Assembly (NCBI RefSeq): GCF_965641715.1
Contig: NZ_OZ282453.1
DNA from: Escherichia coli
GTDB lineage: Bacteria > Pseudomonadota > Gammaproteobacteria > Enterobacterales > Enterobacteriaceae
Strand: one strand, 5' to 3'
DNA: 64,000 nucleotides
Shown: one piece after another, positions 27,072 to 49,239 of the stretch
Numbering within the stretch: the stretch's first letter is position 1
Layout of the letters: each line of letters opens with the position of its first letter
Translations under genes and position numbers: made by a program
The notes under the pieces: generated by a model
Database searches by the model: none
What the model saw: the letters and a program-made list of their open reading frames with translations, nothing else
What the model was told of the DNA's origin: nothing

Positions 27072-27974
27072 TTATTGATAAACAAAAGTCACGCCAATAA
27101 TCGATTGCACATTCCCTGCAGTCACCTGCCCTCCGGTACGTGCGTAATTTGCCGTTAATCCCAGACTTACCGCCGAAGTTCCTACTGCTCCTAACGATAC
27201 CGTGTTATTCGCTGGAATAATCGTACCGTTGCGCGTCAACTGTACGCCGACGCCCTGCGCTGGTGAAAACGACGCGGTATTGGTGAAAATCGAGTTGCCC
27301 GCATCTGCGGTTGTGCCGGAGAGGTAATACCCCAGGTTTTGGCTTTTCGCACAATAAACGGTAAGAGGAATTGGCACTGAACCAGGGTAGTCCGGCAGAG
27401 TAACGGTGACATCACGAGCAGAAACATCGCAGCCGCCAGTAGGCACCACCACATCATTATTGGCGTAAATATTCCACACAAACTGGAAATCATCGCTGTT
27501 ATAGTTGTTGGTCTGTCGCAAAATAAGCACGGCAATTAATGAGCCAGCTTTAATCGCCACCCCGCCCGCACTGCTCACAGGCGTCAAATAAAGCGCCACC
27601 GGCCACGGCTTATCCGTTCTCGAATTATAAACAACCCGCGGCGTTTCGCTGGTGGTCGGAAATGGATAGCTACTGCCACTATATTTTACGGTCCCGGAAA
27701 AATTAGATAACACGCCGCCATAAGCCGAGCCTCGTTGCAGTGTGACATAGTCTGTAATGGTTTCCGGATAATCGTTATGGCAAAAGATTTGCGTCGAAAG
27801 ATCTACGACCAGGTTTTGCCCCACATTCACGGCAGGCGCAAGGTTTACATAAACATTAGCGCTGCCACCGCCAATAGGGATAGCGGTACCATTGGCGGTT
27901 TTACAGGCGAATGACCAGGCATTTACCGACCAGCCCATCAGCAGTACAGCAAACAGGGTAATAACTCGTTTCAT
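27072..27974 (-). CDS. fimH: type 1 fimbrial adhesin (mannose-binding tip)
   Basis: 300-aa ORF, signal peptide then FACKTANGTAIPIGGGSANVYVNLAP. Confidence 0.95.
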   Translation of the reverse strand: MKRVITLFAVLLMGWSVNAWSFACKTANGTAIPIGGGSANVYVNLAPAVNVGQNLVVDLSTQIFCHNDYPETITDYVTLQRGSAYGGVLSNFSGTVKYSGSSYPFPTTSETPRVVYNSRTDKPWPVALYLTPVSSAGGVAIKAGSLIAVLILRQTNNYNSDDFQFVWNIYANNDVVVPTGGCDVSARDVTVTLPDYPGSVPIPLTVYCAKSQNLGYYLSGTTADAGNSIFTNTASFSPAQGVGVQLTRNGTIIPANNTVSLGAVGTSAVSLGLTANYARTGGQVTAGNVQSIIGVTFVYQ

Positions 27975-27993
27975 TACAATTATCTCTTCGGGT

Positions 27994-28497
27994 TCAGCTG
28001 TAGGTATAGGTGATGCTAATCACTGCCTGAATGGTTCCCTGAGTGGCTCCGCCATTTACCGTCAATGCTCTGACCTGTAACGGGAAGTGCGCTGATTGTG
28101 AGGAATCATCCACCTGAACTGTTTTGGTTGCGCCAGTATTCAATGTGTTGCCACTGTCATCCTGTAGCTCTAACTGGATGTTTTGCGCGGTCCCCTGGTT
28201 TTTATAATATCCGGTACTGTCGGCTGCCCCGCTGAAGCTGGCAGTGACCCTCGACGTTCCCACCGGACAATTAGTCAACTCAAGAGCAACATCATGCCAG
28301 GCCGATGCCGCCCCGGCAGACATCAGACTGAAAGAATAAAGATCGCCGAGATCAACCGTGGCATTGGTGGTGGAAACTGTGCACGGTTTGGCGACGACCT
28401 TACCGTTCACCGTGATGGTGACATCGGCTGCCTGTATCGTCGCACTTGCGAGCGCCAATATTGCCGCCAATAAATACCCACGTTTGCGCCATTTCAT
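27994..28497 (-). CDS. fimG: type 1 fimbrial minor subunit
   Basis: ORF 27994-28503; pilin-like with signal peptide. Confidence 0.9.
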   Translation of the reverse strand: MKWRKRGYLLAAILALASATIQAADVTITVNGKVVAKPCTVSTTNATVDLGDLYSFSLMSAGAASAWHDVALELTNCPVGTSRVTASFSGAADSTGYYKNQGTAQNIQLELQDDSGNTLNTGATKTVQVDDSSQSAHFPLQVRALTVNGGATQGTIQAVISITYTYS

Positions 28498-28509
28498 GAG
28501 CATCTCCAG

Positions 28510-29040
28510 TTACTGATATTCAAGAGTGAAGGTAGCCGTGGCATTGATATGCCCCGCAATGACAGGCACCTGTGTCGCCATTAGCCGGGCGTAAAAATTC
28601 AGCGTATTTGGTTTACCCGGCGTCAGGGTCGTCCACGAAAGCGCGGACGATGGAGCATTAAGGGGTATTTGATTTTGCTGCTCATTCAGAAGCTGTATTC
28701 CCAGTCCCGCAGCCGCTGACACCGTATTTTCAAGTGCAAGCAGGTTGGCATTGTGGCTATCTGCAACGCCGGTAAACCCAACCTTTACGGCAGAAACGGC
28801 GTTACCACAGGGTGACAGCAAAATACGAAATGGAACGACAGGAGTCGTTGCGCCAATGTTGTTAAATTGCTTCGCCGCGTTTTCCATCAGATCAACAGTA
28901 AAATTGGTTGATTCAGCGGCCACACTACAGCCGTTATCTCTGACATAGCCGCGGATAGTAATCGTACTATCCGCAGCCAAAGCGTGACTCACCGCCAGCC
29001 ACAAAAAAGCGCACAGAAGATAAAAAGGTTTGTTTCTCAT
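28510..29040 (-). CDS. fimF: type 1 fimbrial minor subunit
   Basis: ORF 28510-29043; start at MRNKPFYLL. Confidence 0.9.
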
Positions 29041-29049
29041 CACGCCCCC

Positions 29050-31686
29050 TTAACGACATTCAGCTGATAGCTGGGTTAATAACTGCTGCTGACTCTCTGG
29101 TGGCAGTTGATAATTGGCGACACAGTGAGCATTTTCCTCTTCTCCCCATTTCACCTGAACTTTTCCCGCTAGAGGCATTCCGCTGAGGTAAACCTGACCA
29201 TTATCCGCAACAATGCCGCTACTCTGGCTACTCTCTGATGTCACCATCGCCCCAAACGGCAGCGGCTTATTATTGTGGGTTAGCGTCATGAGCAGTTTTA
29301 TCCCAACGCGCGCTTTAAACTCTGCTCGCACGATCGCCCCACGAGTGGGAACAACGTTAGCGACCGCGTTATCTAAATCGACGTTATCAGCCAGGGTATT
29401 GGTATCCAGCGCCACTCTGTTTTCCCGATATTCGGTGGCATAAGGCAGCACGGCATAACCGCGCCAGTCGGTACGCACCCCCGTCTGGTTTTCGACTTTT
29501 GCATCTTTTGCGCCAGGCGCTTTAACAAGTACCACCGTATCGTTTAACGGCTGCCCCAGCGTTACGCCATTGGCATGAGCCAGTACCCCACCGCTGACTC
29601 CGTAATAGAGCTGCTTAATATCATCGCTATGGCTGTAACCGATATTGGCATTGCCGTAACCACCGCGATAATTCAGCGTGGCGTAGCCTGTGCTTCCGCT
29701 ATTACCATCGCCTCCCCCGGCATAGCCGGTTTGCACGCTATAGCTGAGGTTGTTGTCTTCCAGCAACGTACCGTATACGCCAGCCAGATTGGTCATCCGA
29801 CCGTTGAGATCGTGTGACATGCTGTAGCTGGCACTGGCATGTCGCCACTGAGATTTACTATCAGAACGCAGCCAGTGGCTGAAAGGAATATTGACGTTAA
29901 GCGCTAACATCTGATCCCGTCCTTTTTGCCAGGCGTTTTTCGTCAGGCTATAGCTGAGCGTCCAGTTGATATCTTCGAACGCAGTATTTAAACCAGCCTG
30001 GAATTGCTCATCGACATTACTCGTTCCCCAATAAGTTTGATGGCTACCACTCAAATACAGTGTTGATGTGCGCCCGAGTTGCTGAGTAACGGTGAGTTGT
30101 AATTTCCCGCGTTTGTTATAAGCGAGGTTGTAATAGTCGGTGAATTTCGGCTTAACCTGAATAACTCCGTCCTGTGTTTCGATGTTGTAGCCATTCATTC
30201 GACTGTATGTTGTATCAGCGAAATTAAAATATCCGCTGGTCGAATAACGGTAACCCACTAACTGAATATTCGTGCCTGACTCATTGAGCGATTTATTATA
30301 GAGAAAACGCACCGATTGTCCGTCATGCTGACTGTCATCGGGAAGTGTGGAATTAGCCTGAGTCATATCCACAGACAGAGCGCCCAGTGCCCCCATATTT
30401 TTCCCGATACCAAAATTAAAAGCACGATAACGATCTGCCAGTTGCGTTCCACCATATATTGTCCAGCCAGCCGGAAGGCCGTGGAGTAATGTACTTTGGA
30501 AAAAGCGGGGTTTTTCCTGTTGCGCATTTCCACTACGGTATTCTCCTGCCGTAATGGAATAACGAGTATGCCCTTCACGTTGCAAAAGCGGGACTGACGA
30601 ATAGGGTACGGTAAAAATCTGCGTGCTGCCGTCAGCCTCTTTAATCGTTACCTGCAAGTCACCACTATTACCTGCGGCATAGATATCGTTGATGGTAAAA
30701 GGCCCCGGCGGCACCGTACTATTATAAATGTCATACCCATTTTGTTTAATAGTGACCTGTGCAGTACCACGAGCAATACCGTGGATCACCGGGGCAAATC
30801 CTCTTTGGCTATCGGGTAACATATTGTCATCTGAGGCCAATTGTGCGCCGCGAAAGTTAATACCATCGAAAATATCGCCCTGGGTATAACCATCACCCAG
30901 CGTCAGCCGGGAACGTAAAGGAATTATGTCTCGCTCAAGCCAGGTATTGATATGCTGCCATTTATTTTTGCTACCTGATGAACTGTCGCTACTGTTATAA
31001 CTCCAGGTGGTATTGTCGCGTAAACGCCACGCACCAATATTTAACCCACTCTGTAGGTTTAAATATGCATAATGGCTGTTACCCCCAATCCGATTCTGTA
31101 CACTATTTCCGCTGAAATTATAATTGAGCAATCCGGCATTAATACCGGGATCCCATAACTCAGGAGGAATATAACCACGCGCGCGATTACTCATAAATGC
31201 CTGAGGGATCGTCAGGTTCAGTCGCTGCTGACCAACATCTAAATGCGCAGTAGCGTCCTGGACCATTGTGGTTAATGGCACACAGGCATCATCCGCCAGC
31301 AGATTCATACCGGAGACAGAAGCCGTATTCAGCCCCATACTGGCAAGTTGCGCGCGTGTCAGGCAGGGAACAATCCCTTGTTCGCTGTCGCCCGTATTAA
31401 ATGTGACATCACGCGTTGCCATATAACCATTATTCAAATAGATATCGACACGATACGTCCCTGGCGGTAATTCTTGCCCATTTTCAAAACGCGATAAATC
31501 AGCCACAGCCTGGGGATCATCCGCTAAAAAGCGCGGATTAAAATAGAGTTCGGCAGATGACAAAGGTGTCTGTGCGGCAAAAGCACAGGCGACAAAGAGC
31601 CGGACAAAAAAACCAGCCAAACGATGCTTACGAATATGCAAGCATTGTGTGTTTCGCTGGTAAAGTCTTAAATTCAGATATGACAT
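29050..31686 (-). CDS. fimD: fimbrial outer-membrane usher
   Basis: 878-aa ORF. Confidence 0.95.
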   Translation of the reverse strand: MSYLNLRLYQRNTQCLHIRKHRLAGFFVRLFVACAFAAQTPLSSAELYFNPRFLADDPQAVADLSRFENGQELPPGTYRVDIYLNNGYMATRDVTFNTGDSEQGIVPCLTRAQLASMGLNTASVSGMNLLADDACVPLTTMVQDATAHLDVGQQRLNLTIPQAFMSNRARGYIPPELWDPGINAGLLNYNFSGNSVQNRIGGNSHYAYLNLQSGLNIGAWRLRDNTTWSYNSSDSSSGSKNKWQHINTWLERDIIPLRSRLTLGDGYTQGDIFDGINFRGAQLASDDNMLPDSQRGFAPVIHGIARGTAQVTIKQNGYDIYNSTVPPGPFTINDIYAAGNSGDLQVTIKEADGSTQIFTVPYSSVPLLQREGHTRYSITAGEYRSGNAQQEKPRFFQSTLLHGLPAGWTIYGGTQLADRYRAFNFGIGKNMGALGALSVDMTQANSTLPDDSQHDGQSVRFLYNKSLNESGTNIQLVGYRYSTSGYFNFADTTYSRMNGYNIETQDGVIQVKPKFTDYYNLAYNKRGKLQLTVTQQLGRTSTLYLSGSHQTYWGTSNVDEQFQAGLNTAFEDINWTLSYSLTKNAWQKGRDQMLALNVNIPFSHWLRSDSKSQWRHASASYSMSHDLNGRMTNLAGVYGTLLEDNNLSYSVQTGYAGGGDGNSGSTGYATLNYRGGYGNANIGYSHSDDIKQLYYGVSGGVLAHANGVTLGQPLNDTVVLVKAPGAKDAKVENQTGVRTDWRGYAVLPYATEYRENRVALDTNTLADNVDLDNAVANVVPTRGAIVRAEFKARVGIKLLMTLTHNNKPLPFGAMVTSESSQSSGIVADNGQVYLSGMPLAGKVQVKWGEEENAHCVANYQLPPESQQQLLTQLSAECR

Positions 31687-31752
31687 TATTCCTCCGGTTT
31701 AAAATCACCCGGCAGTCAATTCTTTTTATTCAGGCGAAAAATTCCCCCTGCG

Positions 31753-32478
31753 TTATTCCATTACGCCCGTCATTTTGGGGGTAAGTGCGCCATAATCATT
31801 TATTGTTCGGTAAGTAATATTGCTTCCCGCATCAGAAGGCAATTTAACCGTGCTTTCGCCCATTGGAGGCACCAAGGCATTTTCAAGAACCCGGGCTCCG
31901 GCATTCAACTCTGTTACCGTCAGGTAATAGGGTGTCGGGTTAATCAGCGTCAGAGAATTCGCGCTACGACGAAATCTTAATTTTTCTGCGGCCTGATCGG
32001 GTGGCAACGCTAATTTAGCCGGACGATAGTACAGTTTAATGCGGCTGATAATTGCGAGCTGTAGCGTATTCTCAGTCAATTTTGATTTATCCATTGACGG
32101 AATCGCTTTAACGTTCATCCAGAATAAACTTTCCCGGTCCTGTGGCAATTGGTTATTTGTTGCATCAAGAATACGCAAGGTATTCTCTTTTTTTCCCTTC
32201 ATCGCAAATAGAGGAGGCGTCACGATAAAACGACCATCCTTTACACCATCGGCATTTTCCACCCATGATTGAATTAAATAGGTACTATTTTCATCATTAT
32301 TTGTCACGGCAAGTTGCACTTGTTTTTGCCCTGCCGGATAAATTACGCGAGTCGCACCTAAGGCCACTCCCGCTTCAGCACGTCCGGCAACCATCATTGC
32401 CATGAACATCAGGATACCTGCCAGCAAGCAGAATGTTATTTCCTGCGATTTCCTTACATTGACGTTTTTATTACTCAC
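31753..32478 (-). CDS. fimC: periplasmic fimbrial chaperone
   Basis: 241-aa ORF, PapD-like. Confidence 0.95.
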   Translation of the reverse strand: MSNKNVNVRKSQEITFCLLAGILMFMAMMVAGRAEAGVALGATRVIYPAGQKQVQLAVTNNDENSTYLIQSWVENADGVKDGRFIVTPPLFAMKGKKENTLRILDATNNQLPQDRESLFWMNVKAIPSMDKSKLTENTLQLAIISRIKLYYRPAKLALPPDQAAEKLRFRRSANSLTLINPTPYYLTVTELNAGARVLENALVPPMGESTVKLPSDAGSNITYRTINDYGALTPKMTGVME

Positions 32479-32514
32479 TGTCCTGTTCCTGTTATCACAT
32501 TATCTGCTGAACAA

Positions 32515-33054
32515 TTACTGATAGGTTAAAGAGAACCAGGCCTGGGCATTGGCGATGCCGCCAGTAACCCGACGCCCGGTAGCACGATATTTGGCGATGA
32601 AATGTAGCGAAGTAGAGCCTGAGTAAAGCCGTTTCCAGTTTGCTGGAGGACGATTAATCGGTACGAGGTTTCCTTCATCATCAAACAACGCTACGCCAAT
32701 ATTGGTGGCTATCCCTGGCCCCTCTCCCACGGAAAGCACATCCGGATTTTTACCATCCGCGACACCGTGAAACGCCACCCCCACACGTTCACTCACCACC
32801 GTGCTACATTCCCGTAAATGAATAACAAAAGGCACCGGTGCGCTATCTTCCCCTACCGCATGAAACCGGTTACTGCTGATTTGCCCCATATTGACCGTCA
32901 TTTGTTTATCACCGGCTTCAATCCGGCAAGTTTCCGCAATAATGACGCCCTGAAATTGCATATTTCCGCCGGGCAACGTGGTATTCCATTTATTTCCGGC
33001 CAGAGCAAACATTGGCAGCAACGACGCTAATAGAAATAATCTCTTCCTTTTCAT
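32515..33054 (-). CDS. fimI: fimbrin-like protein FimI
   Basis: ORF 32515-33186; conserved start [19 protein letters not shown] at about 33054. Confidence 0.85.
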
Positions 33055-33118
33055 CGTTATTTTTATCGCACAAGGGTGGGCATCCCTGCCCGTAATGACG
33101 TCCCTGAACCTGGGTAGG

Positions 33119-33667
33119 TTATTGATACTGAACCTTGAAGGTCGCATCCGCATTAGCTGCGCCAGGGGTTGCGACACCAATTGCATAATAACGCGCCTGG
33201 AACGGAATGGTGTTGGTTCCGTTATTCAGGGTTGTTTGTGCACTAAATGACGCACCATCCAGCGCCAACGCAGCTCCTGTTTTATCCAGGATCTGCACAC
33301 CAACGTTTGTTGCGCTACCCGCAGCAGAACTCTGCAGAGCCAGTACGTTGGTATGATTCGTGTCAATTGTTGTACCTAAGAAGGCAACAGCAGCTTTGCT
33401 TGCAACATCGGTATCGCAATCATTCAGCTGAATGTTAAAACCGACAGCAGAGCTGGTCGCTCCATCCTGGTCCAGCGAAGCGGTACGAACCTGACCTAAC
33501 TGAACGGTTTGATCAACAGAGCCTGCATCAACTGCGCAAGCGGCGTTAACAACTTCCCCTTTAAAGTGAACGGTCCCACCATTAACCGTCGTGGCAGCGG
33601 CCAGAGCCGCTGTAGAACTGAGGGACAGAGCCGACAGAACAACGATTGCCAGAGTTTTAATTTTCAT
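33119..33667 (-). CDS. fimA: type 1 fimbrial major subunit
   Basis: ORF 33119-33724; start at [23 protein letters not shown] (33667). Confidence 0.95.
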
Positions 33668-33786: not shown

Positions 33787-34100
33787 TTGGGGCCATTTTG
33801 ACTCATAGAGGAAAGCATCGCGCACAAACTTTTTCAGTTTATTTGTTGGCTTAATATTCTATTGTTATCTTTATTTATAGATTTTTATATTGCATGAGGT
33901 GGTTTTTGGAGAGAAGAATGAGGAAGATGCGTCGAGCCACAGAAACGTTAGCTTTACATATAGCGGAGGTGATGTGAAATTAATTTACAAGAGAAATAAT
34001 TTACATATCAAACAGTTAGATGGTTTTTGTCGTTTTTTAAAATTTTTATGCTTGAGAAAAAATACGTAACTTATTTATGATATGGACAGTTTGGCCCCAA
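33787..34100. promoter_or_regulatory. fimS: fimS invertible promoter element (314 bp) bounded by 9-bp inverted repeats
   Basis: ttggggcca at 33787-33795 and its reverse complement tggccccaa at 34092-34100; sigma70-like TTGAGA-N17-TATGAT at about 34045-34074 reads toward fimE (+ strand). Confidence 0.85.
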
Positions 34101-34147: not shown

Positions 34148-34744
34148 TCAAACCTCTTCTCTTTTTAATTTTTCGTTTATGAGATTATTTCTTTCCCATA
34201 ATCCGGCAAAACGAGCAGCATTACTGGCGGTATAACGTACAGTATGGCGAATATTTCGATGCCCGAGATAATCCTGAATTAAACGAGTATCTGCACCACG
34301 CTCCGCCAGTTCATAACCGCAAGCATGCCTTAACATATGAGGATGAGTCTGCGTTACGGTTCCAGCTTCAATACCGGCATCGCGAATAATGCGATAGGCC
34401 TGCTGGCGAGAAAGCCGACTCCCGCGGCGAGAAATAAATATAGCGTCGGTCCGGTCAGCGCCTTTCCAGTTAGCACGTTCCTGGGTCCAGCGTTCCACAG
34501 CTTCACGCTCATCAAAACGTAACGGGTGAACGGTAGAAAATCCGTTCTTCAGTCGGCGAATATTTATTCGACCTTCATTAAGGTCAAGATCCTGATAATG
34601 CAGATCAAGTAGTTCACTAATACGCATCCCATGCCGATATGCCAACAGAATAAGGCAATAATCTCTGGCTCCCGTTGCCCCGTAACAAACCGCCTGCATC
34701 ATGGCCTGAACTTCTTTACCGGTAAGATAACGACGTTTACTCAC
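34148..34744 (-). CDS. fimE: fimS site-specific tyrosine recombinase (ON-to-OFF)
   Basis: 198-aa ORF; tyrosine recombinase C-terminus (HMLRHACGYELAERGADTRLIQDYLGHRNIRHTVRYT). Confidence 0.95.
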   Translation of the reverse strand: MSKRRYLTGKEVQAMMQAVCYGATGARDYCLILLAYRHGMRISELLDLHYQDLDLNEGRINIRRLKNGFSTVHPLRFDEREAVERWTQERANWKGADRTDAIFISRRGSRLSRQQAYRIIRDAGIEAGTVTQTHPHMLRHACGYELAERGADTRLIQDYLGHRNIRHTVRYTASNAARFAGLWERNNLINEKLKREEV

Positions 34745-35824: not shown

Positions 35825-36838
35825 CGTTTTTCCCTTATAATTACAGACGCGCACTAGCTGTGCTGGGTTAGCAATAATCCAACATTTTTATCCTGATTAT
35901 GTTTATAAAAGCGAACGTTTGCTTAATAACTAACGTAAGTGGACCAGTTCTTCTGAGTGAACTTAAATGGAGTAGCAACAGTTAATTATAATAACGTTGC
36001 CATACAAACGCTATGCTCTTGCATGCTATGTACCTTTATATATTTATCAATCGGATACGAATCTAATAATAACCCTCATCATTAATGCAACTAATCTTAT
36101 CTATATATCATGTGATATGTTCTGTAACAAGTAAAATCAACATAAAAAATTCAGCAAAATTTAATATTCGTTCAACTAGCCGTCTCACATATGACATTAT
36201 TAGTCAACTCCATTTGCCACAAAATGGCTATTTCATGGAACGCAGTAATTTCTTAGTGGCTATTATCATGCTAATTCTTAGGTCCCTAGCGATTATTCCT
36301 GGCTGGTTCGTCAGTTTAGGCCATGAGATTGTTACATTCCTTTTTATCATGGAGATATGGGGGAAAGCAGGAAACGATTTTTTCATCTACATTCGTTGGT
36401 AAATATAGCTTTGGTCACTACGACTTAAACCTTCCTCAATCACAGGTATTCGCCGGGCGATACGGCAAACAAACTAAGTGAAACATCATCCTGAAAACAC
36501 CAACATCAACAAGCCTCTCCAGATCGACTTCAGAAGTGACCAGTTACAAGCCACAAACCAGGAAACATATTTCATGATGAGAATTATGCTCAGCCTGATG
36601 GCGGGTAAACACTGATTTTCACCAAGCTCACTGAGTTAGCTTGCAAAGCTTTCCTTGTTTAGACTCTAAATAAATTATTTATAAAACAAATAGTTAAACG
36701 AAGATCTTTAGTTTTTGAAGACCACCGCAAGTGTTCGTCTGGCTTCACATGGCATCTTCCTCTTAGAAAAAGATCGACATATTTTGTGACACGAATTGCA
36801 AATCTGGTTTTGTTGTATGGATTGCGTGATTTTTGATC

Positions 36839-36859
36839 TGGTATAACAGGTATAAAGGT
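36839..36859. promoter_or_regulatory. NanR operator-like GGTATA repeat upstream of nanC
   Basis: ggtataacaggtataaaggtg, the GGTATA-repeat pattern of NanR operators, in the long fimB-nanC intergenic region. Confidence 0.5.
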
Positions 36860-37278
36860 GAACCACGATAGACAATGAGACAGGGCATCTCGCAATCTAT
36901 GGCAAACATCACTTCAGTTCTTTCTCATCGGGTGATGAAAACGCACTTCAGTCTGAAAGGAATATGAAAATGAGATCAACAGACACTCTATTTTATGACT
37001 CTGGGTAAAATGAATTGAGTAAGTGATCTAGCTTACGAACATTCAAATCAATTAAACATCAGAATAGATTTTATACTCAAGTATTTAATCTGGCTCTCTG
37101 TTTATTTAAATAATGTGGAAAGAGATTTTTCACAGGAGACATTATACAAAAAATATAAAATACAGCTATCGGTTGCCAAAGACACTATAAGCCTGGCAAA
37201 AAATATTACACAACATAAATGCTAATTGTTTATGCGGGCTTTGTATTGCTTTCTGTATCCTACAAATGAGTGAAATTT

Positions 37279-38014: not shown

Positions 38015-39121
38015 ATGAATAAAACAATAACGGCGCTTGCTATCATGATGGCTTCATTTGCCGCAAACGCGTCTGTATTACCGGAAACTCCTGTGCCATT
38101 TAAAAGTGGTACCGGAGCAATTGATAACGACACTGTCTACATTGGTTTAGGTAGCGCAGGTACGGCATGGTACAAGCTGGAGACACAGGCCAAAGATAAA
38201 AAATGGACAGCGTTAGCTTCATTCCCTGGCGGACCAAGAGATCAAGCAACCTCGGCATTTATTGATGGTGATCTGTATGTGTTTGGCGGCATTGGCAAAA
38301 ATAGCAAGGGCTTGACTCAGGTATTTAATGACGTACACAAATACAACCCCAAAACCAATAGTTGGGTTAAATTGATGTCGCACGCACCGATGGGCATGGC
38401 GGGTCATGTGACTTTTGTACACAACGGCAAGGCTTATGTTACTGGCGGTGTTAACCAGAATATCTTCAATGGCTATTTTGAAGATCTCAACGAGGCTGGA
38501 AAAGATTCAGCCGCTATAGATAAAATCAACGCTCACTATTTTGACAAAAAAGCAGAAGATTATTTCTTCAATAAGTTTCTGTTGTCTTTTGATCCCTCAA
38601 CCCAGCAATGGAGTTACGCTGGCGAATCTCCCTGGTACGGAACGGCTGGTGCGGCGGTTGTGAATAAAGGTGATAAAACCTGGCTTATTAATGGCGAAGC
38701 CAAACCCGGATTGCGAACGGATGCCGTATTTGAACTTGATTTCACCGGTAATAATTTAAAATGGAATAAGCTTGCTCCCGTCTCATCACCAGATGGCGTC
38801 GCTGGCGGTTTTGCGGGGATAAGCAATGATTCTCTTATATTTGCCGGAGGGGCCGGATTCAAAGGTTCACGAGAAAATTACCAGAACGGTAAGAACTATG
38901 CGCATGAAGGCCTGAAAAAATCATATAGCACTGATATTCATCTTTGGCATAACGGGAAATGGGATAAATCGGGTGAATTATCGCAAGGTCGGGCCTACGG
39001 AGTATCATTGCCCTGGAATAATAGTCTATTGATTATTGGCGGTGAATCTGCAGGCGGCAAAGCGGTGACGGATTCAGTTTTGATCTCTGTGAAGGATAAT
39101 AAAGTTACAGTACAAAACTAA
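38015..39121 (+). CDS. nanM: N-acetylneuraminate mutarotase (Kelch-repeat beta-propeller)
   Basis: ORF 37907-39121; start at MNKTITALAIMMASFAANA (38015). Confidence 0.9.
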   Translation: MNKTITALAIMMASFAANASVLPETPVPFKSGTGAIDNDTVYIGLGSAGTAWYKLETQAKDKKWTALASFPGGPRDQATSAFIDGDLYVFGGIGKNSKGLTQVFNDVHKYNPKTNSWVKLMSHAPMGMAGHVTFVHNGKAYVTGGVNQNIFNGYFEDLNEAGKDSAAIDKINAHYFDKKAEDYFFNKFLLSFDPSTQQWSYAGESPWYGTAGAAVVNKGDKTWLINGEAKPGLRTDAVFELDFTGNNLKWNKLAPVSSPDGVAGGFAGISNDSLIFAGGAGFKGSRENYQNGKNYAHEGLKKSYSTDIHLWHNGKWDKSGELSQGRAYGVSLPWNNSLLIIGGESAGGKAVTDSVLISVKDNKVTVQN

Positions 39122-39185: not shown

Positions 39186-40166
39186 ATGAACGCAATAATA
39201 TCGCCTGATTATTACTATGTTCTTACTGTTGCTGGTCAGTCTAATGCCATGGCGTATGGCGAAGGACTGCCATTACCGGACAGGGAAGATGCGCCTCATC
39301 CCAGAATTAAACAATTAGCGAGATTTGCGCATACGCATCCCGGAGGCCCGTCATGTCACTTTAACGACATTATTCCACTGACTCACTGCCCACACGATGT
39401 TCAGGATATGCAGGGTTATCACCATCCTCTGGCAACGAATCATCAAACACAGTACGGCACCGTTGGCCAGGCACTGCATATTGCACGGAAATTACTGCCC
39501 TTCATTCCTGATAATGCAGGGGTTCTCATCGTTCCATGTTGCCGTGGCGGATCGGCTTTTACCGCGGGCAGCGAGGGGACATATTCAGAACGGCACGGAG
39601 CCAGCCATGATGCTTGTCGTTGGGGAACGGATACTCCGCTGTACCAGGATTTAGTCAGCAGAACGCGAGCCGCACTGGCAAAAAATCCGCAGAACAAATT
39701 CCTCGGCGTATGCTGGATGCAAGGCGAATTTGACTTAATGACCAGTGACTACGCGTCACACCCTCAACACTTTAATCATATGGTTGAAGCCTTTCGTAGG
39801 GATCTAAAACAATACCATTCTCAGCTGAATAATATTACTGACGCGCCGTGGTTTTGCGGCGATACCACCTGGTACTGGAAAGAAAATTTCCCTCATGCGT
39901 ATGAAGCTATTTATGGCAATTATCAAAATAATGTTTTAGCTAATATTATTTTCGTCGACTTCCAGCAACAAGGTGCAAGAGGGCTAACGAACGCGCCTGA
40001 TGAAGATCCGGACGATTTAAGCACGGGATATTACGGTTCAGCGTACCGGTCACCGGAGAACTGGACGACGGCACTGCGAAGCAGTCATTTCAGCTCAGCA
40101 GCCCGTCGGGGGATTATTTCTGACAGGTTTGTAGAAGCAATTTTGCAGTTTTGGCGCGAAAGGTGA
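39186..40166 (+). CDS. nanS: 9-O-acetyl-N-acetylneuraminate esterase
   Basis: ORF 39159-40166; start at MNAIISPDYYYVLTVAGQSNAMAYGEG (39186). Confidence 0.9.
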   Translation: MNAIISPDYYYVLTVAGQSNAMAYGEGLPLPDREDAPHPRIKQLARFAHTHPGGPSCHFNDIIPLTHCPHDVQDMQGYHHPLATNHQTQYGTVGQALHIARKLLPFIPDNAGVLIVPCCRGGSAFTAGSEGTYSERHGASHDACRWGTDTPLYQDLVSRTRAALAKNPQNKFLGVCWMQGEFDLMTSDYASHPQHFNHMVEAFRRDLKQYHSQLNNITDAPWFCGDTTWYWKENFPHAYEAIYGNYQNNVLANIIFVDFQQQGARGLTNAPDEDPDDLSTGYYGSAYRSPENWTTALRSSHFSSAARRGIISDRFVEAILQFWRER

Positions 40167-40173
40167 GCGTTCA

Positions 40174-40824
40174 TTAATTTGATTTATTCGCATCCATCAG
40201 CGCTTTTAACTCCTCCGGCGTAAACGGTGGTTTGCGTCGGTGCAACATCGCATGGCAATTAGGGCACACAGGAAGTAAATCATTAACTGGATCCAGCTGG
40301 TAATCCTCTTTAATGGCTGAAAGCGGCACCAGGTGATGCATATGGATAAAACCCTCAGCGATATCGCCATAGATCTTCACCAGATCAACGCCGCATACGT
40401 TGCACTGGCATCCGTGATGTTCGACTGCTTTCTCGCGAGCTTTTTTATCGCGTTCATAGCGGTTTACCGTCACCTTTATCGCCGCACCTTCAACGTAGGT
40501 CCCCTGCGACGGCAACTCATCCGGGAACAGAACATCGGCTATGGGAGCCGCAGCGGCTTTATCCTGATGAATATGAAATCCCTGATCTATAAGTAGCTTG
40601 ACGCATTTAGATTTTATTCCGCCGGTGAAATCCGCAGGGGTAAATTGCGTCCCCGTCATCAATGTCGCTGCGATGCCAGCAATCGCCTTCGAGGGGTAAC
40701 GTCGGCCATGATATTCAATCTCATACAACCGCGCAGGCTGGAACTGATGAGTTTCTCCCGCATCCCATAAATGGATAGCTTCGATGATATACCGCCGCGG
40801 AAGATGGTCGGGAAGTTTATTCAT
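40174..40824 (-). CDS. HNH endonuclease with N-terminal domain of unknown function
   Basis: 216-aa ORF with RBS; C-terminal HNH signature (CQCNVCG ... HMHHLVPLS ... PVCPNCHAMLH); convergent with nanS. Confidence 0.75.
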   Translation of the reverse strand: MNKLPDHLPRRYIIEAIHLWDAGETHQFQPARLYEIEYHGRRYPSKAIAGIAATLMTGTQFTPADFTGGIKSKCVKLLIDQGFHIHQDKAAAAPIADVLFPDELPSQGTYVEGAAIKVTVNRYERDKKAREKAVEHHGCQCNVCGVDLVKIYGDIAEGFIHMHHLVPLSAIKEDYQLDPVNDLLPVCPNCHAMLHRRKPPFTPEELKALMDANKSN

Positions 40825-42301: not shown

Positions 42302-44533
42302 TTAGTTCTCAACCATCAATCGGGAAAGTTTGGCAAAAATCGAACTCTTACTACTTTCGCCACTCCTGAGCATATCCAGGGTGAAGCTATTGAGGTAAGC
42401 ACCAGTTAACGGGTGGTTAAATACATCTACGGCCTTACCTTGGGCGTCCCATATCAGCAGATTTTCTACCAGGTTAGGCCGTGCAATAGTAGGATTTGTA
42501 GGCTGAGCATCGCTTACCAGAACAAACACTCCATTCACATGCGGTTGCAGGTAAATATGGTGATGCTTCATCTTTTGAGTTTTGGTCAACGAGTCGTATT
42601 TCGAGCGGCCCGGTGATATCAGATAGGGCAGTACGTTTTGCTCCAATTTTGCTGAGCGGGTGATGGTATAGCCGTTAAATTTATCACCTTTACGCTCCGC
42701 CAGCGCTTTTTCTTGTTCCTGATAAGCATATGAATCGACGATATTAAATTGCGCTGGGCCAATCAGGCGCGGCACGCGGGAGCTGTTATAGGTGGTAAGC
42801 AGCACATCTGCTGTGTGGTCGTAGAGATAGAAGCTTTTATCGAATAATTTCTTTAGTCGTCCCAGAGCTGGATGATCAACAGATAGATACTCGAATTCAC
42901 CTTCAGCGATCCCGGTATCAACCACCCTAAGTTGGCCGCGCTCTATTTTTAGTTCAACATATCCAAGCAGGGAGAGATAGCTTTTTGTTTTGCGTACTGA
43001 ATAGGCGGTATAGTGCCCATCCGCCAATTCTGGCAGTGGTATGTTATGTTGATTGAGTAAGCTCTCTTTGAACCATAGTTCAGTTTTTGTTCGGCGTACC
43101 TTACTTTTCAATAAGGTAACTGCTGACTTGAGACGACTGTGTGGTTTCGTCAGTTCGATTTCGTATTGTGCAGGGTTGCTTACCAATTGTTCATTAATAA
43201 AATCAATCGCATCCAGCAACTTACGATCAATATTCATTCCTTGTAAAACCACAGGCACCGGTTGCTGATTTAGCCACCCTTGCAAACGATCTAGCTTAAG
43301 CTGGGTATAGGTATCCCAGTTGAGTTCAGGCTGTTTTCGGGCGTCGTCAAAGGCTGCATAGAAATCATTGTACTCAACAGATTCATTCTCTTGCTGCCGG
43401 ATGCTGTTGCTTCGTTCTTCCTCTACCGCATTGAGTACCAGAATAGATGTATTGGCAGGCAGCTCAGCAAATCCGGTTTGTCGGGAATGCTTAAGCGATG
43501 CAAGAGGCCAGAGTTGATACCCAGGGAACTGGTTGGCTAATGCATCAAAGAAATAAGCTTCTTGCGTGACGCTGAATTCGACGCCGTTATTAACCACCAA
43601 CAGCGTATTAGCCAGCTGTTGATCGAGGTCGGTAGCAAACTGATTGACCTCGTGTGTAGCCTGAAATGGGATAGGTTGATGGGGGATCTCTAGTTCACTG
43701 AGGCGCTCGCTGGCAGCATTCATGACCACGTTATAGGTATAGACCTGGCATTCGCCATAGCCGCTGCGCTCACGAAAAAAATCCAGTTTGCTATCACGGG
43801 CATCAAGTTTGCGCCGAGCTTTAAGCCGACGATTATCGATGTTAAACCACACGCTGGTATCATCCAGGGATAGGTGCATCTCATCCGCCGGTTCGACCAG
43901 GAATTTTCGTTTGTGCAAGGTAAAAGCGAGTTCATTATATTCTGAGGCATAAATGTCGAGCTCAAAGGCTTCCATCACCCCGATGCCTTTTTTTTGTGTG
44001 ACGGGCTGACTCAGACGAGCGTTAAGGTAAAGCGTTGAGTTGAAGTAAGTCGGCGATACCGAAAAGCGCTCACTGGCTTTTTCCAGCATTACCATTTTCA
44101 AATGCAGGCTAAATAATCCCTGAATCAGGCGAGATAGGTCATGATTTTCAGCGGTGAGTTGCTGACAAAGCGTTTCAATACGTTCTGCCAACGTCCTATG
44201 AGCCTGACTGTTCGGGTTAGTTGCAGGCGCCAGGAAAAAAAAGACGTGATGGTAATTTGGTAAGCAATGCAGTTCATATTTTACCTCCTGCCCGGCCTCC
44301 AGCCCAAGCTTCTGCCGCACGCAAGATTTTACCTCCTGATGAATTCGCGCATAGTAATCAGCGGATTTTTCTTTTCGCTCTTTAGTAAAGCGCTGAACCA
44401 TAAAGTCTATCGTATAGATATTAGATACAGGGGCCAATAGACGCTGGATGGTCGTCAGCTGATCTTCTTCAAGCTTGATCAAATTGGTTCGGGCAATCGG
44501 AGCATCCGTCAGTTCATTCAAATTAGGGATCAT
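42302..44533 (-). CDS. 743-aa protein of unknown function, second gene of the helicase operon
   Basis: ATG overlaps the upstream helicase stop (ATGA); RBS AAGGAAAAG; no motif I can assign. Confidence 0.8.
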   Translation of the reverse strand: MIPNLNELTDAPIARTNLIKLEEDQLTTIQRLLAPVSNIYTIDFMVQRFTKERKEKSADYYARIHQEVKSCVRQKLGLEAGQEVKYELHCLPNYHHVFFFLAPATNPNSQAHRTLAERIETLCQQLTAENHDLSRLIQGLFSLHLKMVMLEKASERFSVSPTYFNSTLYLNARLSQPVTQKKGIGVMEAFELDIYASEYNELAFTLHKRKFLVEPADEMHLSLDDTSVWFNIDNRRLKARRKLDARDSKLDFFRERSGYGECQVYTYNVVMNAASERLSELEIPHQPIPFQATHEVNQFATDLDQQLANTLLVVNNGVEFSVTQEAYFFDALANQFPGYQLWPLASLKHSRQTGFAELPANTSILVLNAVEEERSNSIRQQENESVEYNDFYAAFDDARKQPELNWDTYTQLKLDRLQGWLNQQPVPVVLQGMNIDRKLLDAIDFINEQLVSNPAQYEIELTKPHSRLKSAVTLLKSKVRRTKTELWFKESLLNQHNIPLPELADGHYTAYSVRKTKSYLSLLGYVELKIERGQLRVVDTGIAEGEFEYLSVDHPALGRLKKLFDKSFYLYDHTADVLLTTYNSSRVPRLIGPAQFNIVDSYAYQEQEKALAERKGDKFNGYTITRSAKLEQNVLPYLISPGRSKYDSLTKTQKMKHHHIYLQPHVNGVFVLVSDAQPTNPTIARPNLVENLLIWDAQGKAVDVFNHPLTGAYLNSFTLDMLRSGESSKSSIFAKLSRLMVEN

Positions 44534-47500
44534 GAGACTTTTCCTTTAGTCGGCAACTTTTCTACACCCAGCAGGGTTAGTAACATTGGGTTAATGTTCA
44601 ATGTCATGCTCAGTTTCGAATTTTCCAGAGCTCGTCCGCTCTCTCGATTTTTGGGCTGATAGTACTGATAGTCGGTTTGCAACAGGTTAAGGTAGTGGAT
44701 CGTGTGATCCACGTTATCTTGCCACATCAGATTATTGGGGTTCTGGCTGTAGGCGACGTTCAGATAGACAAATCGAATGCGTTCGTAACGGCCTGACAGC
44801 ACAGCCTGAAGCTGTTTCTGTCCCTCTGTATCCGCCTTTTGGCTGGTGATATTACGGATCTGGCGAATCTTGTTGTTGCTTTTCTCAAGCGTTTCTTCTG
44901 CCCGCGTTAAATCATCCAACTGCGTCGCCCAGCGTTTAACGTCGATGCAGAGCAGGTCGTTACCCACTTCAATAAAGCGGTCAAAAAACTCATATACTAG
45001 CGGTTCAAGGCGTTCAAACACCTGTTGATCAGAAAGTGGGGTAACGCCATAGCTTTTTAGCACTTTATCGAAGAGATATTCACCGACATTGCCTTTGAGC
45101 AACGGAACTAGCCTGGGGTTGGGTACCCATTTTTTGAATGCCGTTTCCTGGATGTTGTCACATTCACGAATCAACTCGCCGACCAGGTTGCCGGGGGTAA
45201 AATCGACATCGTTTCTATACTGCGGAAAGAGGGTGAGCTCAGGCCGGTACTCTCTTGCGCCGCCAGCGAAATCCGACAGGGCGGAATAATCTCTGTGGAC
45301 AAGTCCATCCGGGCCGCGTTTGTGGCAAAGTAAAATAGTTTGATTGCCCTGATGGCGGTCGATAAACAGGGCGTGGTGGATTGATTGCATTTGCCGATTG
45401 GCGGCATACAAGGAATTAGCCTGAAGTTTTTCCAGCCAACGCATGGGATTGGTAAAGGAGTCAGAATCGCGGAATAAATTACACAATTCGAGATATTCAA
45501 GGTTGCCGGCGCGTACCTGATTTATCCAGTCGGTTTTCAGGACTCGCTTATGAACAGCATCGATGCGGCGACCATTTTCTACGATAGCCTGTTCAAACGC
45601 ATACCGCTGTTCTGCATCTCTAAATGACTGGTTCTGACTCAGCTTTTCGCACTCCTCCATTAGGCGGTGGTTAAGCAAGGACATGCTTTCTGATACTACC
45701 TCGTTACCGCTATCTTCACTGAGAGCGGCGAACTGGAATGCAACATTACGGAACACATCGCGGGGTAAAAAGATTTCTGTTTTCAATAGAGTGTCGCGAC
45801 GCTCGACTCGCCCTACGGCCTGCACGACGACTTTGAATAAGCTCATATCATGTTCGGCCATTAACAGGCGATAGTTTTCGCCGTGGGCGAAATTAACGTT
45901 GAAATCGGCCAGCTTGTGGACGGTAATATCGTCATCAGCGTAGTGTTTAAGCACGGTAACGTAGTTAGGTAATGTATTAAGATTGCCGCTGTTGTCCTTT
46001 ACTTCGCTGTAAAACGAGGAGTTGATGAGCACTAAGCGCTCAAAATCGACATCCAGACGTGGTGCATTGATATCATTAATATCGCCGTCATGGTATTTCA
46101 CAAAGTAGTTGAGGCCAGTGCCTGCACTTTTGTAGCTGCTCATAAATACCAGTACGGTATTGCTGTTCTTGAGATAGGTTTCTTGCCTAATATCTTCGAC
46201 ATTAGCCAGTGGTGAATCGAAAAAGACCAAATGGACTGTGTGACGCCCTTTGAATGGGGTAAAGGTCAGGATCTGGTCATGTTTCTTATCGTTATCCGTT
46301 TTATCATCGCACCGGGAGTGCATACCGTACTGCTGACGCCAGGCTGATTGATGAGTGCGCCAGGCGCTGATAAAGGCCCGCTTAAATGTCCCTGAAAGGG
46401 ACAAAATCAGGCTGTTTTTACCCTCGTAGGCGGCAAGCAATAACGCTTCAAGCTCCCGCTGGTACTGACGCCGTTTATAGGTATTTTTCAGGTCGTACTC
46501 CAGCGGTTTCTTCAGCGCGTCGAAAAAGTTGTCATACGTCCTGCGATAGATCTCACAATTTTGGTAGATATCGGTCAATTTTAACTGCTTATCATCGAAC
46601 ACCCTGAAGTCGACGTTGCGGATACTGGCTCTCAACGCGCGTAGTGCTCTAAGCGTATCGATATCTGTTTTTTTACGTTCAATGACTCGATAGCCAAGGT
46701 CACGGCTATAGCGCTCCAGGAAGTGACGATTGAAGTTACCGTTTTTGGTGTGGCTAAAACCACTGGTGGCGCTAAATCCAATCACTTTATTGTGCGTGCC
46801 CGTTAATAAACGTAGCAGCATGGCTTCAGGCAACTCTTGTACCAGATCCATCTCAAACGCCAGAATAATTGTACGCTCGGCTCCACTGTTCACGTAATTG
46901 AGTTCAACTATCGGCGTCATCGTGAATACGGTTTTGGGTTGCAGATAAGTGTAGAAATGATCAATCAACAAGTTTTTATCGGTGGTGCGATCGAAGATAT
47001 GTCGCACCACTCCAGCTACATTATTGGCTGCGTCAACAAATTGGCCCAAAGGTGTATTCTGGCTGCTGGAGTTATCCTGGCCACCATTTTTTACCCAGCG
47101 CTTAAAGTGTCGGTTGGTGATATCAGAACAGGCGGCGAGGATGACGGAGACCAATTGGAACAGATCGTGCAGTGTGGGATTGGTGTCGCTGGCATCATTT
47201 TCGACTTCGTAATATAGCTCGGTGCGCGTTATGTCGCCTTCGCTGTTGCGCATACGAATGCGTTTCAGCCCCTCTTCATTAACGTACATTTTGGGGTTAA
47301 AACTGAACACATTCCGGGTAATGGAAATGATGCGTTCGGCGGCGTCGCCGTTAACTTCGAATGCTCCTAACTGGTCGCGAAACATCTCCAGGATCGAGCC
47401 CAGCGTCGTACCGGGTGATAATTCGCACTTTTTCGCCAGTAGGTCTCGAAGGATGGTGATGAATTTGACCATCTCTTGCTCAAAGGTCGTTTGCGCTTCT

Positions 47501-49239
47501 TTGGGCTTTTTCCGGCGCTCCAGGCTGAGTACCGCATTGTGAATACGTCCCGCGACAGAGATAACATGCGCCAGATTATTTTCCTGTGTGATTAGCTTTA
47601 CATGGCATGTTTCTTCAAGACGGGTGTAGGCTTCATGTAGTTCATCAATGATTACCGTAAAGCGAATATTTTTCTGGCGAAAAGGGCAGTCTGGATTACG
47701 TCTGAAGTGTTCATCACGAAGATAAGCAACCTGCCCGGAATGGCCAGCTGCCGCAACGGTGCTGATCTGTGGATCTTTGGGAGCCAGCTTGCCACCAATC
47801 AGCAAGTCGAAACCTACGGACTCAAAATGCACGCCTTCACCTCGCTGACGAGGCGCCAGTCGGTAAGTTGATGTGTCGAACTTATTTGTAGTCATTAATA
47901 GCACCGACGGGCGGTACTGGCAAACTTCGAAAGGCAATACCTGTTTGATAAGCTCGAAGTAGACTTCGTGTACGCTTAGTTCAGACTTGCTTGGTTTTCG
48001 TGCTGTCTCCGCGTGTTGCATTCGCTCTTGGCGCGCCTGGAGCCCGCGACGAATGTACTCTTTAATGGAAGCTTTTTCACTATCTGGTCCAAATAGTAAT
48101 TTACAGGCTGACTCAATCGTATTGCGGATACTATGACGACAGTTTTTTAGCTGCTCTTCAAGAATTTCTCTTTCGTAGTTGTTATCCTGAGAACCGTATG
48201 TTGTCAGCTTTTTTAACTGCTCTTCACAGCGATCAATTTGTGAGACATGGTAATTGAGCGAACGCATTGCGCTGCCAATATATTTGCTACCTTTCGCCCC
48301 TTCGTACCACTGAATATAGCGGTCGCGATTTTTCAGGCCCGTGGCCCAGTCCATAAAGTCGAGATCGGCAATATCCTTACGAGAGAGAACGCAAATGAAT
48401 TCGCCGCCAGAAGCCAGAATTTTATCTTTCTGGCTGCTATCCAGGTCGATTTGTGATTTTTGCGGCGACATGAACAGCAGGTTGGTAAAGCCACCTTCGG
48501 GAAACAGATCATCTGACTTTTGTTTTTTGGCGAAACACTCCAGATATTCGACATACCCTTGAATTACGCCATAACTTTTGCCAAACCCCGTGCCATCGGA
48601 ACTGAAGATGACCTCCGCGCCATCACGTTCATGCACGTGGTAAAGTTGAGAAACTTGGGCGCGGCAAGCGTTAATATCTTCAACCAGCGTTATGTCAGGA
48701 ATTTGCCTGGAGATGAGATCTTGCAGATTATTATTGATAGTTATCTCTCCCACACGCTCACACTCACGGTAACTATTGATGGTTATTTGGCTGCTTTCGA
48801 GCAGAATCTTTTCCACTTGCATGGGAGCAAGATGCAAGGCTGTTGCAATTTCATTGATAGTATCTGATAGAGGTTCGTGTGGATTGCTAATCGTGAAGTG
48901 GTTTAGTACTGCTGCAACGGTATCTGGATGCAATGCTTTTCTGAGAGTGGGGAAGGTGAGGCTGTAATCGTATAGCGCCAAATCATTGTTTATCAGACAG
49001 CGAAACAGCTGTTTAGTGGGATCGCCTCCAGGACGGCTGGCAAATCCCAGGATTTTTGCCTGTTCGAGTCGATACAACAATGCTGCAGCATCGCGATCAG
49101 GTGAGTCAAATGCATCGTGAAGCTGCTGGCTAAATGGCATTGTGGCATTCAGCCGGTTATGGCTGACCAACGCGGAAAAGTGCTGACGTACCAAGGTAAG
49201 CAGCTTACAATCTTCCTTTATAGTCCAGTTTTTTCTCAT
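44530..49239 (-). CDS. large divergent SF2 (DExH) helicase/translocase-like protein, possible C-terminal Mrr-like nuclease fold
   Basis: ORF 44530-49275, probable start at second Met (49239) behind AGGGGA; motif I SDGTGFGKS (nt about 48574-48600), motif II VIIDELHE (about 47635-47655), Snf2-like motif V SSYKSAGTGLNY, motif VI QAVGRVERR (about 45796-45822); C-terminal GEYLFDKVL...DLLCIDVKRW. Confidence 0.8.
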   Translation of the reverse strand: MRKNWTIKEDCKLLTLVRQHFSALVSHNRLNATMPFSQQLHDAFDSPDRDAAALLYRLEQAKILGFASRPGGDPTKQLFRCLINNDLALYDYSLTFPTLRKALHPDTVAAVLNHFTISNPHEPLSDTINEIATALHLAPMQVEKILLESSQITINSYRECERVGEITINNNLQDLISRQIPDITLVEDINACRAQVSQLYHVHERDGAEVIFSSDGTGFGKSYGVIQGYVEYLECFAKKQKSDDLFPEGGFTNLLFMSPQKSQIDLDSSQKDKILASGGEFICVLSRKDIADLDFMDWATGLKNRDRYIQWYEGAKGSKYIGSAMRSLNYHVSQIDRCEEQLKKLTTYGSQDNNYEREILEEQLKNCRHSIRNTIESACKLLFGPDSEKASIKEYIRRGLQARQERMQHAETARKPSKSELSVHEVYFELIKQVLPFEVCQYRPSVLLMTTNKFDTSTYRLAPRQRGEGVHFESVGFDLLIGGKLAPKDPQISTVAAAGHSGQVAYLRDEHFRRNPDCPFRQKNIRFTVIIDELHEAYTRLEETCHVKLITQENNLAHVISVAGRIHNAVLSLERRKKPKEAQTTFEQEMVKFITILRDLLAKKCELSPGTTLGSILEMFRDQLGAFEVNGDAAERIISITRNVFSFNPKMYVNEEGLKRIRMRNSEGDITRTELYYEVENDASDTNPTLHDLFQLVSVILAACSDITNRHFKRWVKNGGQDNSSSQNTPLGQFVDAANNVAGVVRHIFDRTTDKNLLIDHFYTYLQPKTVFTMTPIVELNYVNSGAERTIILAFEMDLVQELPEAMLLRLLTGTHNKVIGFSATSGFSHTKNGNFNRHFLERYSRDLGYRVIERKKTDIDTLRALRALRASIRNVDFRVFDDKQLKLTDIYQNCEIYRRTYDNFFDALKKPLEYDLKNTYKRRQYQRELEALLLAAYEGKNSLILSLSGTFKRAFISAWRTHQSAWRQQYGMHSRCDDKTDNDKKHDQILTFTPFKGRHTVHLVFFDSPLANVEDIRQETYLKNSNTVLVFMSSYKSAGTGLNYFVKYHDGDINDINAPRLDVDFERLVLINSSFYSEVKDNSGNLNTLPNYVTVLKHYADDDITVHKLADFNVNFAHGENYRLLMAEHDMSLFKVVVQAVGRVERRDTLLKTEIFLPRDVFRNVAFQFAALSEDSGNEVVSESMSLLNHRLMEECEKLSQNQSFRDAEQRYAFEQAIVENGRRIDAVHKRVLKTDWINQVRAGNLEYLELCNLFRDSDSFTNPMRWLEKLQANSLYAANRQMQSIHHALFIDRHQGNQTILLCHKRGPDGLVHRDYSALSDFAGGAREYRPELTLFPQYRNDVDFTPGNLVGELIRECDNIQETAFKKWVPNPRLVPLLKGNVGEYLFDKVLKSYGVTPLSDQQVFERLEPLVYEFFDRFIEVGNDLLCIDVKRWATQLDDLTRAEETLEKSNNKIRQIRNITSQKADTEGQKQLQAVLSGRYERIRFVYLNVAYSQNPNNLMWQDNVDHTIHYLNLLQTDYQYYQPKNRESGRALENSKLSMTLNINPMLLTLLGVEKLPTKGKVS

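Follow-up and report, generated by a model that had tools for sequence, protein, structure and literature searches.

The 64-kb stretch of DNA analysed here (hereafter the window) holds the E. coli fim and nan loci, and the spacer that separates fimB from nanC raises the question of whether this strain retains the NanR operator through which sialic acid is known to act on both genes. The region ties host amino sugars (sialic acid and GlcNAc, which are released in inflammation) to the phase variation of a major adhesin and to the uptake of sialic acid. NanR and NagC activate fimB (PMC3173223, PMC5401889), and NanR represses nanCMS, nanATEK and nanXY (PMC8012715, PMC3658417). The K-12 operator O_NR ('region 1') of the fimB-nanC (yjhA) spacer is summarised in PMC3173223 and PMC5934670, and genomic SELEX has placed NanR on the nanC/fimB spacer (PMC5934670). 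We conclude, with a probability of roughly 85%, that the tandem GGTATA motif in the window is the orthologue of this characterised K-12 operator of the fimB-nanC intergenic region. An O_NR in its known place is an already known, ordinary finding. The K-12 'region 1' work is said to be that of El-Labany (2003) and Sohanpal (2004 and 2007).

fimB and nanC are divergent and separated by 1454 bp (35825-37278), with a G+C content of 35.7% in this spacer against 47.2% for the window; the features discussed below are collected in Table 1. A divergent intergenic region of about 1.4 kb had been recognised correctly in a preliminary description of this DNA, but its left edge was given as 35855 and lies at 35825, because that description had used a GTG-extended ORF, whereas the K-12-annotated ATG of FimB ends at 35824. 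By megablast, the spacer is present in 5109 of 5426 complete E. coli genomes. RefSeq records carry no annotated features beneath it, and an Rfam scan of the whole window returned no match, so that no known RNA element occurs in the long leaders. A 105-aa ORF at 36085-36402 was considered as a gene and rejected: a 1-bp indel in K-12 falls inside it, two strains have a 12-bp insertion there, and nothing is annotated at this place in any RefSeq record. The area between fimB and nanC is also spanned by a supplementary alignment of LF82 and MG1655, whose text form does not have the NagC sites marked (PMC6013987).

The pathway downstream of the spacer, consisting of fimB, fimE and fimS, is intact, as judged by protein identity to K-12 and by the fimS repeats, and FimH is 99.7% identical to its K-12 counterpart. 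fimS matches K-12 at 309 of 314 positions and has the orientation of the MG1655 record. We take TTGAGA-17-TATGAT within fimS to be its promoter, and its pointing towards fimE to be the phase-OFF orientation. A 16-bp deletion has been described in the fimS of O157:H7 (PMC5401889); an element of 314 bp with both inverted repeats means that this deletion is absent here. On the nan side, nanS is full-length in the window and annotated as truncated in the MG1655-derived comparison record and in strain A30.

Table 1. Positions of genes and of known, candidate and predicted regulatory elements in the window (E69, a divergent E. coli genome).
Feature	Position	Strand	Remarks
fimH to fimA	27075-33667	-
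fimS, invertible element, downstream target of FimB	33787-34100		314 bp; both 9-bp inverted repeats TTGGGGCCA
fimE	34151-34744		between fimS and fimB; protein 100% identical to K-12 FimE
fimB, type 1 fimbria switch recombinase, 200 aa	35222-35824	-	200/200 residues identical to K-12 FimB
fimB 5' untranslated leader, about 271 nt	35825-36095	-	start near 36095 deduced from O_SA2
fimB core promoter (putative)	36102-36130	-	TTGTTA 36130-36125, 17-nt spacer, TATATA 36107-36102
SlyA operator O_SA1	36263-36274	-	exact published match; identical to K-12; 3 bp from O_SA2
SlyA operator O_SA2	36278-36289	-	exact published match; identical to K-12
NagC operator O_NC2 (candidate), CATATTTCATGATGAGAATTATG	36566-36588		-471 to -493; TT/AA and C/G at both +/-11
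IHF-like core, AAACAAATAGTTA	36684-36696	+	midpoint of the two NagC candidates
Dam site GATC	36772-36775		adjoins O_NC1 candidate; read from sequence
NagC operator O_NC1 (candidate), CATATTTTGTGACACGAATTGCA	36778-36800		TT/AA at +/-5,6; C at -11
Spacer between O_NC1 and operator	36801-36834	+	probably belongs to the nanC promoter; 100% identity with K-12 and E69
Dam site GATC	36835-36838		one base upstream of first GGTATA; read from sequence
NanR operator O_NR	36840-36862	+	GGTATA 36840-45, aca, GGTATA 36849-54, aa, GGTGAA 36857-62
Operator-to-nanC stretch, 416 bp, presumably nanC leader	36863-37278	+	85% identical to E69
nanC, N-acetylneuraminic acid outer-membrane channel, 238 aa	37279-37995	+	first gene of nanCMS; 100% identical to K-12 NanC
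nanM	38015-39121		protein 98.1% identical to K-12
nanS, full-length ORF, about 326 aa	about 39186 to 40166		from ATG at 39186

At the operator itself, at least two direct GGTATA hexamers are spaced 2-3 nt apart. Only two hexamers are perfect; the third, GGTGAA, matches at 4 of 6 positions, and the three perfect repeats of a three-dimer assembly are absent from O_NR. The match to the NanR repeat pattern had been proposed in the preliminary description and holds, since GGTATAACAGGTATAAAGGTG contains both perfect hexamers and shares its core with the O_NR and nanA operators of K-12 and with the nanX operator of strain 300081. The string quoted there, ggtataacaggtataaaggtg, is likewise present, although it had been placed one base too far to the left, at 36839-36859 instead of 36840-36860. 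Single GGTATA hexamers are common (31 in the window, counting both strands), and the signal therefore lies in the tandem: GGTATA-N3-GGTATA occurs once in the 64 kb and in 0 of 100 dinucleotide-preserving shuffles. A 23-bp operator of the nanA type finds one match in the window, with 2 mismatches, and none is expected by chance. One repeat is bound poorly by NanR, two repeats with a KD of 25 nM and three with a KD of 20 nM (PMC8012715). Because two-repeat binding is nanomolar, two perfect hexamers suffice for a high-affinity site. Two GGTATA repeats form only two NanR complexes, and the number of dimers thus differs from that on three-repeat operators (PMC8012715). At each of three GATC sites, NanR is stated to bind no more than 5 bp away (PMC5155068), and in the window a Dam GATC (36835-36838) lies within 5 bp of O_NR. 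The order GATC-T-GGTATA recurs at nanA and nanX.

Alignment to K-12, which the preliminary description had named as a way to check its proposal, shows that the operator has not been lost: the two spacers are collinear end to end and 97.8% identical. The adjoining GATC and the first 21 of the 23 operator bases are identical to K-12 (GATCTGGTATAACAGGTATAAAGGTG is the same in both). Over the full operator, 22 of 23 positions agree; the sole difference is at 36861, where the window has A and K-12 has C. The third hexamer accordingly reads GGTGAA in the window and GGTGCA in K-12, and is degenerate in K-12 too. Given that it is imperfect in the characterised K-12 nanC site, three perfect repeats define the nanA and nanX operators, not that of nanC. 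The window also carries the 26-bp core, TGATCTGGTATAACAGGTATAAAGGT, that is found at nanA in K-12 and at nanX in strain 300081, and its O_NR matches the operators of both at 21 of 23 positions. The K-12 nanR-nanA spacer and the region upstream of nanX (yjhB) in strain 300081 both read TGATCTGGTATAACAGGTATAAAGGTATA.

Conservation of the site was followed first within the species, in an alignment of the spacers of 11 diverse E. coli strains (94.8-98.6% identity to the window), where 171 of 1454 positions (11.8%) vary. Among the six longest invariant runs are 36807-36860, covering the operator and the spacer before it, 36773-36805, containing the O_NC1 candidate, and 36555-36588, containing the O_NC2 candidate. 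In permutations, one unbroken invariant stretch of 88 bp turned up 0.2% of the time, a figure that is only indicative because the real stretch, 36773-36860, has one variable position, 36806. The divergent E. coli E69 shares 98.8% identity with the window over an 84-bp block ending at the operator (36776-36859), as compared with 55% for the next 40 bp and 57-66% for the upstream spacers. Conservation in E69 ends right after the GGT of the third hexamer, which in that genome reads GGTACA, and this stop fits a nanC operator that is in effect a two-and-a-half-repeat site. A wider search for the 21-mer core, with one genome per species, gave 90 stretches across Enterobacterales, 80 of which were fetched. 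Nearly all of the 80 lie between nanR and nanA, in many genera, and nanC-linked cores occur only in Escherichia among these fetched loci. At the nanA operators of other genera, the third hexamer varies (GGTATA, GGTATG, GGTACA, GGTAGG, GGTCTA).

The base that distinguishes the window from K-12 is private in every comparison made. Position 36861 is A in the window and C in all 10 other strains of the alignment. Among the 5074 complete E. coli genomes with a match to 36826-36890, none is identical over that stretch, and the best differ by one base. As a control in metagenome contigs, a degenerate-pattern scan yielded 67 nanC-operator loci, of which 66 read GGTGCA and one GGTACA; the GGTGAA allele was found in none. 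This rarity counts in favour of an alternative in which the operator works but with a shifted output: the C-to-A change at 36861 would alter the occupancy by a third NanR dimer, and through it the cooperativity and the level of Neu5Ac at which nanC is induced and fimB turned down. Such an effect would find some precedent in the different numbers of NanR dimers assembled by three-repeat and two-repeat operators (PMC8012715). We nevertheless consider a shifted output unlikely. The hexamer matches at 4 of 6 positions with either base, positions 4 and 5 appear unconstrained in these comparisons, and the consensus T is matched by neither C nor A, so that little effect would be expected. Weak constraint on the third hexamer is also suggested by the point at which conservation stops in E69 and by the free variation at positions 4-6 of nanA operators elsewhere (ATG, ACA, AGG, CTA), and the affinity for two repeats about equals that for three (KD 25 nM vs 20 nM). 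Over core regions, the window is only 98.4-98.6% identical to the best of the 5426 complete E. coli genomes; at about 1.5% divergence from every one of them, private SNPs are to be expected, and the spacer has 5 in its 1454 bp. The narrower proposal that GGTGAA might change NanR dimer loading at the nanC/fimB operator and thereby retune the sialic-acid threshold strikes us as quite unlikely. If it were true, the lineage would have its own sialic-acid threshold for giving up type 1 fimbriae and opening its NanC channel.

The surroundings of O_NR were compared with the published map of the region. McVicker et al. printed the SlyA operators O_SA1, TTAGCATGATAA, and O_SA2, CTAGGGACCTAA, and located O_SA2 at -194 to -183 (PMC3173223). 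We anchored the fimB start site at about 36095 on the position of O_SA2, and the negative positions given here are counted from that start. The -10 element of the putative fimB promoter ends 7 nt before this O_SA2-derived start and lies inside the longest invariant run of the 11 strains, 36065-36168. On the same scale, O_NR is found at -745 to -767, and the published O_NR, O_NC1 and O_NC2 fall in the interval from about 760 to about 470 bp upstream (PMC3173223). The proposed fit to the known sialic-acid control of nanC and fimB is thereby supported, as the position of O_NR agrees with PMC3173223 and genomic SELEX puts NanR on this spacer (PMC5934670).

NagC operators follow a rule of TT/AA at +/-5,6 and C/G at +/-11 (PMC4288165). 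When the spacer was scanned with this rule, only two 23-mers fitted, 36566-36588 and 36778-36800, which are 212 bp apart. The O_NC2 candidate is invariant in the 11 strains, identical to K-12, and matches at 21 of 23 positions in E69; the O_NC1 candidate is also invariant in the 11 strains and identical to K-12, and it overlaps a CRP-like TGTGA-N6-TTGCA at 36785-36800. We infer these two assignments from the sequence, and they agree well with the published distances. The IHF-like core is identical to K-12, matches E69 at 12 of 13 positions and varies at 4 of 13 positions among the 11 strains; it is the weakest of our site assignments. Its core matches at 12 of 13 positions what we take to be the IHF consensus, WATCARNNNNTTR, and it lies midway between the NagC sites, where an IHF site would presumably be expected. 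The Dam sites adjoining O_NC1 and O_NR are both identical to K-12. That at 36772-36775 is polymorphic, being GATC in the window and K-12 and TATC in HS, PV0838, E69 and about 18 of the 67 metagenome contigs, and protection from methylation there can therefore not be universal in E. coli.

Towards nanC, the operator forms part of a larger conserved arrangement. At nanA, nanC and nanX, a homologous block is made up of the CRP-like box (36785-36800), a conserved spacer and the operator; the spacer (36801-36834) is homologous to the stretch upstream of nanX and, more loosely, to that upstream of nanA. TATAAC in the first repeat is likely the nanC -10 element, which would give a predicted start near 36854 and a leader of about 425 nt. 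Counted from this predicted start, the CRP-like box has its centre about 61 bp upstream, and the geometry at nanA is the same. A consensus promoter scan did not pick up this layout or anything else informative near the operator; it gave 4 promoter-like sites where 6.3 were expected, and no terminator. Beyond the operator, the presumptive leader of nanC is better conserved in E69 than the other segments of the spacer (85% as against 55-66%). Within it lies a NagC-like palindrome, CTCTGTTTATTTAAATAATGTGG, at 37096-37118, which hardly varies among the 11 strains. Also in this leader, the window alone has C instead of A at 37028, and this change gives rise to an extra GATC (37025-37028), which is unseen in the 10 other aligned strains. 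We also considered a 12-codon ORF at 36970-37008, preceded by AGGA 8 nt upstream and kept at the same length in E69, as a leader peptide; 4 of its 5 substitutions relative to E69 are nonsynonymous, and it was rejected for want of a coding signal.

For the orthologue of K-12 O_NR, binding and the direction of regulation are taken from the K-12 literature, while the window provides sequence, position, conservation and intactness. As established in K-12, NanR dimers would bind the tandem GGTATA hexamers cooperatively, beside the Dam GATC. Judged from the letters, the operator appears to overlap the nanC promoter, where bound NanR would occlude the -10 element and the start site and so block transcription of nanCMS; the CRP box would be overlapped by NagC sitting at O_NC1. 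As in K-12, NanR would act at a distance of about 750 bp to raise the transcription of fimB, which points the other way, and NagC at its two sites 212 bp apart, with the candidate IHF site between them, would work alongside NanR. Neu5Ac weakens the binding of NanR to DNA (PMC8012715). In K-12, its catabolite GlcNAc-6-P also inactivates NagC. nanCMS would then be induced, fimB expression would fall, and with it the FimB-driven OFF-to-ON inversion of fimS, leaving fewer fimbriate cells, as in K-12. By analogy, NanR would thus act in opposite directions, repressing nanC and activating fimB, so that sialic acid would lower fimB expression; this opposition was absent from the preliminary description. 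In the SELEX experiments, NanR was still on the nanC/fimB spacer with Neu5Ac present (PMC5934670), and the simple picture of release is therefore incomplete.

It had also been claimed that the regulatory coupling is intact in this strain. The claim stands for the cis elements and for fimB, fimE, fimS and nanC, judged by their match to K-12, and the cis side of the coupling is thus intact; nanR and nagC lie outside the window, with nanR in K-12 adjoining nanA, more than 1 Mb from fimB. A second alternative accepts that the site represses nanC and supposes that changes elsewhere in the 1.4-kb region have abolished or weakened the long-range activation of fimB. The sequence requirements of distal activation are not fully defined, and the differences from K-12 cluster at 36240-36375 (-145 to -280), within the extended H-NS-bound region (PMC3173223). 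Most of these clustered differences, however, also occur in other natural E. coli strains and are not private, and O_NR (bar base 22), O_NC1, O_NC2, the IHF-like core, O_SA1, O_SA2 and the fimB core promoter are all identical to K-12. Sohanpal (2007) reportedly found the DNA between O_NC2 and the promoter to be dispensable for activation by NanR and NagC, which likewise counts against a loss. We regard such a loss of fimB activation as very unlikely. Lastly, the notion that the tandem is an accident of an AT-rich spacer (35.7% G+C, in a window with 31 single GGTATA hexamers) and has no regulatory role is refuted by the conservation and identity data and has practically nothing to recommend it: the shuffles never reproduced the tandem, the site matches the K-12 operator, it is 100% conserved in E69 between flanks that are 55-66% identical, and the same core stands at nanA across dozens of genera.

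With an intact orthologue of O_NR in an intact region, the strain probably keeps the standard E. coli behaviour, and the value of the result lies in annotation, not in discovery. What goes modestly beyond the textbook is the stop in conservation after GGT, the polymorphic Dam site beside the NagC operator, and the rare allele of the third hexamer.

Outside the spacer, the window contains a variable island downstream of nanS. Its minus strand carries two large genes that overlap (42302-49275; 743 aa and about 1569 aa), and neither gives a match in Pfam or PADLOC. Near them are a gene resembling HNH or type IV restriction genes (40174-40824), toxin-antitoxin modules, CP4-type prophage remnants, a WYL-GTPase pair and a type I R-M system. 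The two large genes could be an undescribed defence pair. The island (40200-61359) is 99.4% identical to the baboon isolate E. coli A30. The source lineage of the window is without a representative among complete RefSeq genomes (best identity 98.4-98.6% among 5426 genomes).

Three characterised NanR operators can be set beside the site in the window. The nanXY (yjhBC) operator shares the same core and about 77 bp of homologous upstream sequence with the CRP/NagC-like box and the spacer. The region upstream of nanX in strain 300081 (positions 2962-3057 of the retrieved stretch), aligned with 36765-36862 of the window, is over those roughly 77 bp a paralogue of the nanC promoter-operator block. 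The gap from operator to ATG is also similar, about 411 bp at nanX and 416 bp at nanC, although the leaders themselves are not homologous. Unlike the site in the window, the nanX operator has a perfect third hexamer, GGTATA. The nanXY locus is absent from the window and is carried by only about 15% of isolates (PMC10088187).

The nanA operator of nanATEK-yhcH shares with O_NR the 26-bp core, the hexamer spacings of 3 and 2 nt, and a CRP-like site at the homologous upstream distance. It differs in that its third hexamer is a perfect GGTATA, whereas that of nanC in the window is GGTGAA; in that only 37 bp separate the end of the operator from the start codon, as against 416 bp at nanC in the window; and in that, unlike the nanC/fimB operator, it is not known to activate a divergent gene. 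Its (GGTATA)3 arrangement reportedly goes back to Kalivoda (2003). The (GGTATA)3 operator of nanA is also treated by Horne (2021; PMC8012715).

The closest counterpart is the K-12 O_NR. The two are set apart by the C-to-A change at base 22 (36861), which falls in an already degenerate third hexamer, and the spacers by about 31 further differences, scattered and none of them inside the named operators. In all other respects compared, the two sites agree: the same genes flank them, the spacers are collinear (1454 and 1455 bp), the adjoining GATC is kept, the operator lies at about -750 from the fimB start, and the flanking NagC-type and SlyA sites are identical.
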